DNA from: Candidatus Hydrothermarchaeum profundi
GTDB lineage: Archaea > Hydrothermarchaeota > Hydrothermarchaeia > Hydrothermarchaeales > Hydrothermarchaeaceae
Reading direction: 5' to 3'
DNA length: 64,000 bases
NCBI GenBank assembly: GCA_002011125.2
Contig: MTMF02000009.1
Coordinates: 1,128,989 to 1,192,988, forward strand
Below are positions 29,819 to 55,447 of the stretch, in pieces; the first letter of the stretch is position 1, and every line of letters begins with the position of its first letter. Under the pieces are notes generated by a model that did no database searches, had not been told where the DNA came from, and was given only the letters and a program-made list of their open reading frames with translations. The position numbers and the translations under genes are program-made.

Positions 29819-29925
29819 ATAAGGCGGCATCTGTGTTATTATCTTATAGGATAGAATTTTAAAAAAATTAATATAATTTGACCGATTTTTCTCTATTTGA
29901 TTAGATTATTGGAGGTGAAAATCTA

Positions 29926-44331: not shown

Positions 44332-46134
44332 ATGTTGAATAATATGAAAATAATTATACCAGACACTTCGGTGATAATAGATGGAAGGATCACTCAATTA
44401 GTTAAAAGGAAAGAATACAGGGGATGTAAGGTTTTAATTTCTGAGGCAGTAGTAGCCGAATTAGAGAATCAAGCAAATAAGGGAAAAGAGAGCGGGTTTA
44501 AGGGATTAGAGGAGCTTGTAAGGCTGAGGGATTACTCTAAGGAGGGTATTATTGAACTAGAACACGTAGGGAGGAGACCAAGGATTTCAGAGTTCAAAGA
44601 CATAGACGACATCATAAGAAATACGGCTAAGGAGGCAGATGGTCTATTAGTCACAAGTGATAGAATCCAGGCCAGAGTTAGCGAGACTAAAGGGATTAAT
44701 GTTCTTTATCTTAGGAAAAAAAGGGTAAAAAAGGAACTTCGTATATTAAAATACTTCGATCACGACACTATGTCAGTTCATCTGCGTGATAAAGTAGTGC
44801 CTATGGCAAAAAGAGGTAAGCCAGGGAATATAAAACTGGTAAAGCTGTCTGATAAGCCCTTAAAAGAAAGGGAGCTAGTAAAAATCGCGAGAGAGATTAT
44901 TGAGTATGCTAGAGTTGACCCTGACAGTTTTATTGAAATAGAAAGGAAAGGCGCAACCGTAGTACAGCTTAAGCAGATTAGGATCGCTATAGCTAGACCT
45001 CCTTTCGCTGATGGCTTTGAGATCACTGCCGTTAGACCTATTGCAGATGTCAAGTTAGATGACTATAAACTCTCTGAGAGACTTTTAAATAGACTTAAAG
45101 AAAGCGCAGAAGGAATATTTGTAGCAGGTCCTCCCGGTGCTGGAAAGTCAACTTTCTCGCAGGCATTAGCTGAGTTCTACAAGAATCAAGGTAAAATAGT
45201 GAAAACAATGGAGTCGCCTAGAGATTTAGTGGTATCGGATGAAATTACCCAATACGGTCCATTGGAAGGGGAGATGGAGAAAACAGCAGATATCCTCTTG
45301 CTAGTTAGACCGGACTACACAATCTACGATGAGGTAAGAAAAACCAATGACTTCCGGATTTTTGCAGATATGCGATTAGCTGGGGTTGGCATGGTAGGAG
45401 TAACCCATGCAAATAAGGGCATAGACGCAATACAAAGGCTAATAGGTAGAGTAGAACTTGGAATGATACCCCAGATAGTAGATACGGTTATCTTCATCAA
45501 AGACGGCAGGATAGAAAAAGTGTATAAAGTAATGTTCACAGTTAAAGTTCCAGCGGGAATGATGGAGGCAGATCTAGCAAGACCCGTAATAGAAGTTAGA
45601 GATTTTGAAACAGACATAGCTGAATATGAAATATACACATTTGGCGAAGAGACCGTGGTTATGCCTGTTGGAAAGGAGGAGAGGACTGTTACAGAAAAAC
45701 TCGCCGCTGAGAGGGTTTATCAAGAGATCAAGAAGTATGCTCGGAATGCGCGTATAGACGTAGAGGTAACAGGATCAAGTGCAATTGTTTGGATAGATGA
45801 TAAATATATCCCTAAAATTATTGGTAGGCAGGGGAAAAAAATTGAGAAGATAGAAAGGGCTTTAGGCATTGGCATAGATATACGGCCTCTTGAAAATAAA
45901 TCCGAAAGGGAAGAAGTAATCAAAATAACGTTAGAAGAGACAGATAAGTATGTGCACCTGATTGCCGGACCTGAATATGCTGGAAAAATGGTTGAGATTT
46001 ATAAAGATGGAGAATACCTTTTTACTGCTACAATAGGTAGAAAAGGCGAGTTAAAGGTAGCCAAAAATTCTGATTTTGGTAGAGAGCTAATAGATGCTAG
46101 GGAGATCACTGCGAAATCAATTCGAAAGGTTTAA
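44332..46134 (+). CDS. PINA: PIN domain-ATPase-KH protein (Holliday junction branch migration)
   Basis: PDTSVIIDG, TMSVHL, GPPGAGKSTF, MESPRDL, RPDYTIYDEVR, KH motif IIGRQGK. Confidence 0.93.
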   Translation: MLNNMKIIIPDTSVIIDGRITQLVKRKEYRGCKVLISEAVVAELENQANKGKESGFKGLEELVRLRDYSKEGIIELEHVGRRPRISEFKDIDDIIRNTAKEADGLLVTSDRIQARVSETKGINVLYLRKKRVKKELRILKYFDHDTMSVHLRDKVVPMAKRGKPGNIKLVKLSDKPLKERELVKIAREIIEYARVDPDSFIEIERKGATVVQLKQIRIAIARPPFADGFEITAVRPIADVKLDDYKLSERLLNRLKESAEGIFVAGPPGAGKSTFSQALAEFYKNQGKIVKTMESPRDLVVSDEITQYGPLEGEMEKTADILLLVRPDYTIYDEVRKTNDFRIFADMRLAGVGMVGVTHANKGIDAIQRLIGRVELGMIPQIVDTVIFIKDGRIEKVYKVMFTVKVPAGMMEADLARPVIEVRDFETDIAEYEIYTFGEETVVMPVGKEERTVTEKLAAERVYQEIKKYARNARIDVEVTGSSAIVWIDDKYIPKIIGRQGKKIEKIERALGIGIDIRPLENKSEREEVIKITLEETDKYVHLIAGPEYAGKMVEIYKDGEYLFTATIGRKGELKVAKNSDFGRELIDAREITAKSIRKV

Positions 46135-46147
46135 TAGTAGGGAATAG

Positions 46148-46234
46148 AATAAGGCACCAGGAGGCCTGAGCGAGGAGGTAGGAGATTGTTTTTTAGAAAT
46201 AGGGAGGTGATCTCAAACCTCCTAGTGCCTCATT
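46148..46234 (-). ncRNA. Candidate structured small RNA: 23-bp stem with an anti-SD-containing 41-nt loop
   Basis: 46148-46170 pairs with 46212-46234; all four DNA mismatches are G.U pairs on the minus strand. TATA-like TTTAAG lies about 25 nt upstream. Confidence 0.6.
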
Positions 46235-46276
46235 TCCGTAAAAAAGGAATAACGACTTAAATGATTTGTGCATAAA

Positions 46277-47536
46277 TTAAGCACAACTGCTTTTGGGGGT
46301 ATTAGTACGCAATTCTCTTACTAGGGGCTTGCTTATATGGCGCATTGCTCTTGGAGGGACTTGGTAAATCCTTTCCTCTAGTTCTCGGGGATATTTTACT
46401 CTCACTTTATCGCCTTTAAATGTCTTACAAATTCTGCATCGAAATCCTTGATTCTTACCCGCTGATTCCATACGTCTTCCACATTCGCATAGGGGATTCT
46501 CTTCCCTATACATCTCAGCTAGCTTCATAACATGGATCTTTTCGAGATTAATAGTTTTTTTAGGATCAGATCTTACGCCACCGTATACTCTCACTTTATC
46601 GCCTGGAACAAGTTTCTTGACTATATGCCTAAACTCTTTTGTTGGCTCGTATGCAGCGCATTCAATGGAATCACTTCCGTCAGTTACTGTGAATATTACG
46701 TGTCCTCCTTTTATGACTCTTGGGAGGGAGTTAACTTCCCCCTCTAGGATGACAGAGGAGTAGGGCTTGATATCACTGATTCTTTTGACGTTTATTAAAT
46801 GCGCGTCTGTCCCCTGATTTGTTTCATAGATTATTTTTCTTTCTATTCGCTCTCCAAGTTTAATCATGTTAAAAGCTCTTTTAAGAGTTTCAGGATCTTC
46901 TCCACGAATACCGAAAAGTACGGGGCAGGGTGAGTGTGGCGCTATTAATATGCGTTCATTATCTACGTTATTAAAGGTTAGGGGGAAGGTTCTCTCATTC
47001 ATTTTGAATACTGATTTTTTATCGATTTTTCTTTCTTTTCCCCAATTTTTCTTTTCTCGGTAGGCTATTAGCTCATAAGTTTTATCTTTAAAAATACTTC
47101 CGATAGATGCAAGAGCACCGATGATCCCTCTACCTTTTTTAAATTTACATATTTCTGCTCCATAGCTTATGGCGAGATTTTCAGCTTCATCTATAGTAAC
47201 GACTTCATGAAGACATTTTTCATAAAATCTAGAAAATTCTTCTGGAACTTTATCTCCCTGATAAAATACTACCCCTGGATGGGTGTTACTGTCGTCTATT
47301 TCTGCATATTCCTCTACCGTTTCGAGTACTAAGTTTTCCACTCCTTTAGGCTTCTTTCTCATCTCCAGGCAAATTCCGGCGTTTCCTCTAGTCTTCCACC
47401 TAATATTTGGGTTAAGTCTTACTAGTTTTGGTTTAATTGATGTGTACCGCGACAATTCATCCGCAAGGAGAGCCCCTAAATATGTAGTGCACATTCCCTT
47501 TTTGGAGTCCGTGTCATCTATCCCTACGTAGAACAT
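46277..47536 (-). CDS. tiaS: tRNA(Ile2) agmatinylcytidine synthetase
   Basis: VGIDDTDS..GMCTT, LVRLNPNIRWKTRGN, GRGIIGALA, TNQGTDAH, YEPT, zinc ribbon, RHISKP. Confidence 0.96.
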   Translation of the reverse strand: MFYVGIDDTDSKKGMCTTYLGALLADELSRYTSIKPKLVRLNPNIRWKTRGNAGICLEMRKKPKGVENLVLETVEEYAEIDDSNTHPGVVFYQGDKVPEEFSRFYEKCLHEVVTIDEAENLAISYGAEICKFKKGRGIIGALASIGSIFKDKTYELIAYREKKNWGKERKIDKKSVFKMNERTFPLTFNNVDNERILIAPHSPCPVLFGIRGEDPETLKRAFNMIKLGERIERKIIYETNQGTDAHLINVKRISDIKPYSSVILEGEVNSLPRVIKGGHVIFTVTDGSDSIECAAYEPTKEFRHIVKKLVPGDKVRVYGGVRSDPKKTINLEKIHVMKLAEMYREENPLCECGRRMESAGKNQGFRCRICKTFKGDKVRVKYPRELEERIYQVPPRAMRHISKPLVRELRTNTPKSSCA

Positions 47537-55017: not shown

Positions 55018-55034
55018 TAATGAGCGTCGGGGAC
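55018..55034 (+). repeat. 17-bp direct repeat overlapping the tRNA-Ser 3' end
   Basis: 10 nt of the tRNA 3' end plus 7 nt of trailer; identical to 53095-53111. Confidence 0.85.
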
Positions 55035-55109
55035 GGGATTTGAACCCGTGCGGACCTAAGGTCCATCAGCTTAGCAGGCTGACGCCATACCTGGCTTGGC
55101 TACCCCGAC
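55025..55109 (-). tRNA. tRNA-Ser(GCT)
   Basis: Acceptor stem GTCGGGG/CCCCGAC plus G discriminator, anticodon arm TCAGC-CTGCTAA-GCTGA, long variable arm GGACC-TTA-GGTCC, T-arm GGTTCAAATCC. CCA not encoded. Confidence 0.97.
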
Positions 55110-55113
55110 ATTT

Positions 55114-55425
55114 GCGGGCACGTCCAGAGGTGAGCCTCTCTCCCTTAGGCCAGTTGTCCAAGCCCTAACTCGGTCCCGCGACCCTACAAGCATCAGCTGT
55201 CCCGTCTACCGTTGCTCCCTTCCGGGCCTAGCGGGTTCGACGGGTTAAACCGCTTCTCCTCAGCCTTCCAGCTGGTTAAAGCGGCACCGCTGATCCTGTA
55301 GGACGAGACTTCAACGCTCGGGCTTGGGCTGACCAAAGGTCAAGAAAACCGCCCTCTGGACTTCGACCCCTGCATATCGACGATTTCAGGTTACAGGGGA
55401 CGCCGAACCCCCCGGTCTAGCCCGC
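55114..55425 (-). ncRNA. ffs: Archaeal signal recognition particle (7S) RNA
   Basis: About 312 nt, GC-rich. 5' Alu domain GCGGGCTAGACCGGGGGGTTCGGCGTCCCCTGTAACC; helix 8 AGGCCCGGAAGGGAGCA; complementary ends GCGGGC/GCCCGC. Confidence 0.95.
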
Positions 55426-55447
55426 TTATTAAAAAGAGAATGTTAAC

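Follow-up and report, generated by a model that had tools for sequence, protein, structure and literature searches.

In the C-rich or UCCC-loop small RNAs (sRNAs) of Firmicutes, such as RsaE/RoxS and the hairpins of RNAIII, an exposed C-rich loop pairs with the G-rich Shine-Dalgarno (SD) sequence of numerous mRNAs. Exposed loops with an anti-ribosome-binding-site sequence also occur in Archaea: according to the review PMC5867862, sRNA41 and sRNA154 (through its loop 2) of Methanosarcina mazei act in trans and mask the ribosome-binding site (RBS) of their targets. In Alphaproteobacteria, the cuckoo RNAs (CcsR or alpha-r14) come as several sibling copies with variable stems and CCUCCUCCC in each loop, as described in PMC4615179. 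Here, we analyse a hairpin from the archaeon Candidatus Hydrothermarchaeum profundi that lies between the convergent genes of a PINA-like protein and of the tRNA-Ile2 agmatidine synthetase TiaS. The window, that is, the whole stretch of DNA analysed, comprises 64,000 nucleotides (positions 1,128,989 to 1,192,988 of contig MTMF02000009.1, assembly GCA_002011125.2), and the hairpin occupies its minus strand from 46234 to 46148. The element probably functions as an RNA of the minus strand and is probably related to a small family of hairpin RNA genes not yet catalogued, and an anti-SD mechanism is plausible for it.

How does this element compare with the described systems? The Firmicutes RNAs differ from it in being bacterial, in their short loops and intrinsic terminators, and in being documented by experiment. 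The mechanism proposed below is like that of sRNA154 and sRNA41, to which no relationship by sequence or through Rfam was found; the element has one very long clamp helix and one large loop with three motifs and is known from sequence alone, whereas the M. mazei RNAs have been studied experimentally. With the cuckoo RNAs it would share an organisation in siblings but no sequence relationship. Cuckoo RNAs are bacterial, carry two to four adjacent hairpins per RNA with short loops, and conserve the loop; in the archaeal units described here there is a single hairpin with a loop of 35–60 nt, and the outer stem is conserved instead.

Structure and rarity of the minus-strand hairpin

Folding of the minus strand reproduced the uninterrupted 23-bp helix around a 41-nt loop that a preliminary description of this DNA had proposed (Table 1). 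Nineteen of the pairs are Watson-Crick and four are G.U (46151/46231, 46158/46224, 46165/46217 and 46166/46216), the latter being A.C mismatches on the plus strand. The 151 nt from 46130 to 46280 reach a minimum free energy (MFE) of -39.5 kcal/mol on the minus strand, with a z-score of -5.0 and none of 200 dinucleotide shuffles folding as well, whereas the plus strand adopts another, less exceptional fold (-38.5 kcal/mol, z -2.4). Selection on the minus-strand RNA helix, which the preliminary description had read from the G.U pairs, is supported because all four non-Watson-Crick pairs are G.U, because the z-scores differ (-5.0 versus -2.4) and because R1, a covariance model of sibling hairpins presented below, scores 25.0 bits on the minus strand versus 10.1 bits on the plus strand, in the predicted register.

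Such a helix is exceptional in this genome. We counted uninterrupted stems on both strands of the 2.19-Mb sequence, allowing G.U pairs and loops of up to 80 nt. There are 402 with 14 bp or more, 12 with 18 bp or more, three with 20 bp or more and one with 23 bp, which is the element itself; the runner-up has 20 bp. When the genome was shuffled in 500-nt blocks, the longest stems of six such genomes measured 19–22 bp and none (0/6) reached 23 bp. By our own arithmetic, about 0.01 stems of 23 bp with at most four G.U pairs are expected per genome. Thus, the helix is not a product of chance, and the structure is real and non-random.

What does the loop display? Its 41 nt include a single G and 16 C, and three CCUCC-type motifs are presented. 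Both AUCACCUCC and CUCCUACCUCCUCG are single-stranded in the MFE and in the centroid structures, and they are complementary to the GGAGGTGA sites that serve as SD sequences. The match to the 16S anti-SD sequence noted in the preliminary description proved exact: GAUCACCUCC equals the 3' end of the genome's own 16S rRNA (...GCGGTTGGATCACCTCCT, ...GGATCACCTCCT; genome G000, contig C9 ~1917115, minus strand). Its G closes the helix at the end of the 5' arm, and its remaining nine bases open the loop. The SD usage described there is also confirmed. GGAGGTGA is a real ribosome-binding site in this genome, since at 48 of 106 sites genome-wide a start codon of an open reading frame (ORF) with 60 aa or more follows within 0–10 nt, whereas the reverse complement has 1 such case in 106; at the example site, 29911-29918, the ATG of a 138-aa ORF follows after 7 nt.

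We considered and rejected the idea of a mini-16S (a remnant 16S 3' end with its processing stem): the resemblance of the element to the genuine 3' flank of 16S goes no further than the 10-mer. The 16S rRNA gene itself is split across contig ends, with its 5' part at C8:134282-134981(+) and its 3' end at C9 ~1917055-1917514(-), followed by tRNA-Ala, so the two contigs are probably joined through the rRNA operon. Contig C1 (~1954-2164) contains an array resembling clustered regularly interspaced short palindromic repeats, with repeats ending ...GAATCCTGAAAATGGATATTGAAAG; the ATCACCTCC in one of its spacers probably corresponds, in antisense, to a ribosome-binding site of a virus.

Sibling hairpin units and the probable place of the element among them

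We searched the genome for siblings through CACCTCC sites that lie outside genes and are not SD sequences, and through 60 intergenic loci, listed without bias, whose hairpins are strong (stem of 12 bp or more). The build of the element recurs in about six to eight units. Six of them, m2–m7, have a common outer stem, (A)GGCAAAGG / CCTTTGCC(T), and inner stems that differ yet stay paired, while m8 and m10 have other stems in the same layout. Sibling loops of 35–60 nt are C-rich (4–8 G and 13–20 C), and CACCUCC is found in the loops of the element, m3 and m7. The copies are about 60% identical or cannot be aligned. In an eight-row alignment (A3), 97.3% of the cells are paired and both partners have changed in 9 of 14 pairs; none of 500 shuffles does as well and slid controls pair 41–56% of cells, figures that are inflated by the selection of the siblings as hairpins.

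Promoters were scored with a 12-position template of the transcription factor B recognition element and TATA box (BRE/TATA) that had to end 16–30 nt before the stem; the genome's 45 tRNA genes served as positive control. We discarded a position weight matrix trained by expectation maximisation on the sequences upstream of the tRNAs, which had produced an A-rich motif without information. On the CU-loop strand, m2, m5, m6, m7, m8 and m10 match 11 of the 12 template positions, and m3 and m4 match 9. Random intergenic sites reach 11/12 in 0.9% of cases, and the regions upstream of the tRNAs do so in 13%. In most siblings the near-consensus BRE/TATA ends 22–27 nt before the stem, and without prior choice of loci 8 of 260 intergenic hairpin entries reach this promoter score, five of which are sibling units. 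T-runs of 5 or more are present within 25 nt behind the stem on the CU strand of 5 of 9 units and on the other strand of 1 of 9, the background being 11%. With promoters and T-runs both on the CU strand, the units resemble small RNA genes whose transcripts would carry the CU-rich loop.

The m9 and m11 hairpins had no promoter match and were not counted as members. An Rfam scan of the sibling loci returned nothing but a fragment of a neighbouring tRNA. Two further observations concern these units and their like. One 15-mer, GGCTATCTGCAGAAG, is common to the loops of m5 and m6 but runs in opposite directions with respect to their promoters; an inversion of the loop between the two arms is conceivable, as is pairing of one RNA with the other. 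At C9:704569-704609(+), an 11-bp hairpin stands 23 nt behind a 12/12 BRE/TATA and is followed by a C-rich tail, CCCCTCCCCCTCCAC, and a T-run; it is a further small-RNA candidate with an exposed C-rich strand.

Does the element belong to this group? The R1 model was built from the six siblings m2–m7 with the element left out, and it scores the element at 25.0 bits on the minus strand. A scan of the genome for the stem signature GCA...G...G / C...C...TGC (11/11 paired, span 40–120 nt) returned six loci, the element (m1) and m2–m6, all outside our crude gene map; this signature had been refined on an alignment that included the element, and by our arithmetic about 1.3 loci are expected by chance. 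Relative to the sibling consensus the element has compensatory changes at three stem positions, and it shares a CU-rich, G-poor loop on the strand that carries its four G.U pairs. Other results speak against membership: (i) R1 also assigns 27.1 bits to m12, which lies antisense inside a real 257-aa kinase-like ORF and was treated as a false positive, so that a score of about 25 bits can arise by chance and is no proof of membership; (ii) no sibling pair found by BLAST involves the element; (iii) a leave-one-out nhmmer profile of promoter and 5' arm did not recover it at E values up to 10 (m6 was likewise unrecovered, and m2 and m3 scored E 0.3 and E 1.2); and (iv) the element is without the near-consensus promoter and the T-run typical of the siblings. 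Weighing these results, we consider that the element is probably, though not securely, a member of the family.

Conservation, neighbours and flanking signals

The element is confined to a narrow lineage. At gathering thresholds, Rfam 15 matched only the signal recognition particle (SRP) RNA and tRNA across the whole window, and at the locus the best match with E up to 10 reached 16.9 bits versus a threshold of 47, with nothing relevant among the matches; the Rfam scan envisaged in the preliminary description thus placed the element in no family. In its own genome, BLAST of 46140-46270 found itself and chance words of 14–39 nt, and the element is single-copy by this measure. Features of box H/ACA or C/D guide RNAs, as commonly defined, were not found: the helix is uninterrupted, the 3' flank reads CUAUUCCC, and Rfam matches of snoRNA type are at noise level. 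Public genome contigs scanned with TiaS yielded nothing, and those scanned with PINA yielded proteins of other phyla (46–57% identical) and no element. A pattern scan of metagenome contigs gave 19 loci whose similarity is limited to the 28–33 nt of the pattern itself, and scans of viral contigs gave one chance match in a GC-rich coding region and, in another set, none. PINA and tiaS are on one contig in 0 of 28 relatives of the order that have both genes, and their convergent arrangement (window 44332-47536) is unique to this genome within the order. In L049 (G002:C18), the nearest relative at the family level, the first 60 nt after the PINA stop contain a bulged hairpin and, in the sense direction, a T6, a layout unlike that of the element.

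A comparison was possible at the level of sequencing runs. Four DNA runs (X1–X4) were aligned, X1 and X2 being probably the source of this assembly. Run X3 contains a strain about 95% identical, in which both arms are covered and 46195-46216 is uncovered, and run X4 contains a different, more abundant organism. The X4 contig differs at 9 positions from the 3' end of PINA (46005-46074) and by 12 substitutions and 7 gap positions from 46121-46230; after 46230 it falls below the similarity threshold, and between the aligned blocks 46 nt are replaced by 75 other letters. Individual differences are readable for 46152-46199, the right arm (46200-46230) being unlisted and close to the end of the aligned piece. 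Within the readable part, the CU motif at 46171-46185 has zero differences, whereas 7 of 11 positions of the spacer (46186-46196) are changed or deleted. In the stem, 46166 C>T turns a G.U into an A-U pair and 46170 G>A turns a G-C into a G.U pair on the minus strand, both of which keep the helix if the partner is unchanged, and 46152 A>G would disrupt an outer pair. Among the indications that this copy itself has a function, this pattern of kept motifs and a free spacer is the strongest.

The stem-then-T-run order of an intrinsic-type terminator is found on neither strand, since the minus-strand U6 precedes the stem and the plus-strand T6 falls within the loop, and a terminator scan of the locus flags only a 6-bp alternative hairpin. 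The block CACAAATCATTTAAGTC before the element resembles, by eye, the block upstream of sibling m3, and the small palindrome at the tiaS stop codon has a partly similar stretch in sibling m6. The coding region of tiaS contains an exact 19-nt direct repeat, TACTCTCACTTTATCGCCT, at window positions 46397-46415 and 46586-46604, 189 nt apart. The tiaS matches of three relatives (G018, G028 and G031) have one in-frame TAG each, and ARAGORN reports a tRNA with anticodon CUA ('tRNA-Pyl') at G000 C9:1321583(-); members of this order may decode TAG as an amino acid. Elsewhere in the window, at 55025-55427(-), an archaeal SRP RNA (244.9 bits) adjoins a tRNA (63 bits), both above their Rfam thresholds.

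Table 1. Coordinates of the hairpin, its surroundings and the sibling units (window positions, unless preceded by a contig of the same genome)
Feature	Position	Strand	Remark
5' arm AAUGAGGCACUAGGAGGUUUGAG	46212..46234	-	one SD-like AGGAGG inside
41-nt loop	46171..46211	-	AUCACCUCC at 5' end, A6 spacer, CUCCUACCUCCUCG at 3' end
3' arm CUCAGGCCUCCUGGUGCCUUAUU	46148..46170	-	fold and stem census
Double CU motif UCUCCUACCUCCUCG	46171..46185	-	no X4 difference listed
GAUCACCUCC, 10-nt copy of own 16S rRNA 3' end	46203..46212	-	read from sequence
Core matching R1	46152..46230	-	25.0 bits
PINA-like gene	44332..46134	+	PIN, T2SSE-type ATPase and KH domains; stop 14 nt from hairpin
tiaS (tRNA-Ile2 agmatidine synthetase)	46277..47536	-	four TiaS domains; same strand as RNA
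U6, candidate tiaS terminator, possibly leaky	46240..46245	-	between tiaS stop codon and hairpin
T6, candidate oligo-T terminator of PINA	46189..46194	+	inside loop; not conserved in run X4
Weak promoter-like block CACAAATCATTTAAGTC	46254..46270	-	ends 19 nt before hairpin; 8/12 BRE/TATA positions
Small palindrome TTGTGC-N9-GCACAA	46266..46286	-	overlaps tiaS stop codon
24-codon TTG ORF	46186..46260	+	GGAGGT 7 nt upstream of TTG
m2	C9:495266-495337	-	sibling hairpin
m3	C9:1348397-1348475	+	sibling hairpin
m4	C9:1348603-1348682	+	sibling hairpin
m5	C9:1487836-1487923	-	sibling hairpin
m6	C8:105493-105566	-	sibling hairpin
m7	C9:193103-193163	+	sibling hairpin
Further promoter-driven hairpin unit	C8:95791-95871	-	CU-rich loop
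Further promoter-driven hairpin unit	C9:1579892-1579952	+	CU-rich loop

Proposed translation masking and its rivals

How might the element act? As the best reading, though at somewhat short of an even chance, we tentatively propose that it is a divergent member of a lineage-specific group of hairpin sRNAs that mask ribosome-binding sites and thereby dampen translation. A structured minus-strand RNA of roughly 90–100 nt would be transcribed by read-through from tiaS past the U6 or from the weak promoter CACAAATCATTTAAGTC; because it has no strong promoter or terminator of its own, the element may ride on tiaS read-through. The 23-bp clamp helix would keep the almost G-free loop single-stranded, and its three CCUCC-type motifs would be offered to the GGAGG(UGA) of ribosome-binding sites. 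The open loop could then pair with GGAGGUGA-type sites and their flanks, hiding the site from the 30S subunit and lowering translation. Transcription of this copy, its pairing with mRNA and the resulting repression are steps that we infer. A broader version, in which co-regulated sibling sRNAs with loops mimicking the 16S tail would compete with ribosomes for SD sites and tune the SD-led proteome, this copy being the long-stem version behind tiaS, seems to us rather doubtful.

Several results weigh against RBS masking by this element. In a duplex scan of 2,086 start regions, the loop found 503 at -15 kcal/mol or below, compared with 534 for the reversed loop and 393–525 for three shuffled loops, so that the target-pairing check suggested in the preliminary description yielded no specific target. 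By our reading, two SD-led leaders, at C9:457869-459011 and C9:745167-751202, include 12-nt stretches that equal the plus strand of the loop region. Intergenic CACCTCC sites other than SD sequences lie in an enclosing stem of at least 9 bp in 12 of 37 cases versus 25% of random sites, and the enrichment of CACCTCC in stems is weak (about 1.3–2-fold with a random intergenic control). The promoter score of the element, 8 of 12 template positions, has a background P of 0.44, no T-run of at least 5 follows its stem within 25 nt on either strand, and the U6 between tiaS and the hairpin could halt read-through. The sequencing runs in which the locus was found are of DNA, with no RNA run among them. 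BLAST of 46140-46270 against 40 related genomes gave chance matches only (best E 0.06), a hairpin comparable to the element was found downstream of PINA in 0 of 20 relatives and downstream of tiaS in 0 of 14 (longest stem 14 bp in both cases), and R1 found nothing convincing in 34 genomes of the order (2 weak matches). Conservation in relatives, to which the preliminary description had attached importance, is divided between the 40 genomes, where the element was not found, and the metagenome relative in X4, where its CU motifs are unchanged. The anti-SD-like loop content recurs in siblings that bear strong promoters and is unchanged in X4, and its predicted pairing with start regions is no better than that of shuffled loops.

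The hairpin could instead be a cis-acting element at the 3' ends of the converging genes, with no targets in trans, either within an extended 3' untranslated region (UTR) of tiaS or between the two units, where it would keep exonucleases away from the 3' end of an mRNA or curb read-through and antisense transcription that would enter PINA. Its position fits, 42 nt after the tiaS stop codon on the same strand and 14 nt after that of PINA, with oligo-T near both genes (U6 on the minus strand, T6 on the plus strand), and in X4 the element still stands beside the 3' end of PINA. Its weak promoter and the missing T-run behind it are the reasons for which we keep the tiaS 3'-UTR option. On the other hand, the T-runs come before the stem or in the loop and never after the stem, relatives have no such hairpin behind either gene, the siblings stand alone with promoters of their own, and a protective hairpin has no need of a 41-nt loop almost devoid of G with conserved CCUCC motifs; on balance, we find a cis-acting role unlikely. 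Alternatively, the CU-rich loop might bind a protein or another RNA, for example as a sponge that titrates purine-rich RNAs or a factor with affinity for pyrimidine tracts or the 16S 3' tail. Such a role would suit the 10 nt shared with that tail, as well as the invariant clamp positions G3-C103, C4-G102, A5-U101, G9-C97 and G13-C93, which could form a protein-binding site, the lack of a specific mRNA in the target prediction, and the 15-mer shared in opposite orientation by the m5 and m6 loops. Yet no protein suggested itself as a partner, C-rich motifs other than the 16S tail occur in several of the sibling loops, and the simplest partner of CCUCC is the abundant GGAGG of SD sites, which leaves a sponge improbable in our view.

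Could the helix be kept as DNA? Repetitive extragenic palindromes (REP) and miniature inverted-repeat transposable elements (MITE) are likewise short intergenic repeats that form hairpins, keep their ends conserved and are frequent between convergent genes, and a selfish or relic palindrome of this type would hold its inverted repeats through a copying mechanism. The units do form a small multi-copy set confined to the lineage, with conserved stem ends (AGGCAAAGG / CCTTTGCCT), and the PINA-tiaS junction is unique to the genome (0/28 relatives). However, the copies are only about 60% identical, with unrelated interiors and inner stems that differ but remain paired through compensatory changes; promoters stand at a fixed distance outside the stems, and promoters and T-runs are on one strand. 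By our count, wobble cells in A3 number 11 for the CU strand versus 2 for the other. No target-site duplications were seen in the sibling flanks inspected, and no Y1 (IS200/RAYT-type) transposase (PF01797) was found in this 97.65%-complete genome, although controls match in 6 of 14 genomes. The multi-copy repeat or MITE that the preliminary description had named among the outcomes that would refute it corresponds in part to what we see, in that sibling units exist, but these resemble small RNA genes and not transposon copies, and a DNA repeat is in our judgement as improbable as the sponge. Finally, the 24-codon TTG ORF of the plus strand that had been put forward as an alternative antisense target does exist, with GGAGGT at a spacing of 7 nt, and might encode a 24-residue peptide. 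We disfavour it strongly, because its start codon lies within a 2-base deletion at 46186 in the X4 relative, where the next 10 nt are also heavily changed; in addition, the peptide is not hydrophobic, the T6 at codons 2–3 is a likely transcription stop, and the helix bias favours the other strand. A coding role is thus very improbable.

What would the element mean for this archaeon? If one of the rival explanations holds, it would be a local 3'-end structure or a palindromic repeat of little wider interest. The archaeal regulatory RNAs whose mechanism has been established are very few and come from cultured methanogens and haloarchaea. If masking of ribosome-binding sites is the true function, the element and its promoter-driven siblings would provide a concrete and testable case of this mechanism in an uncultured archaeon, and it would add an RNA family that is absent from Rfam.

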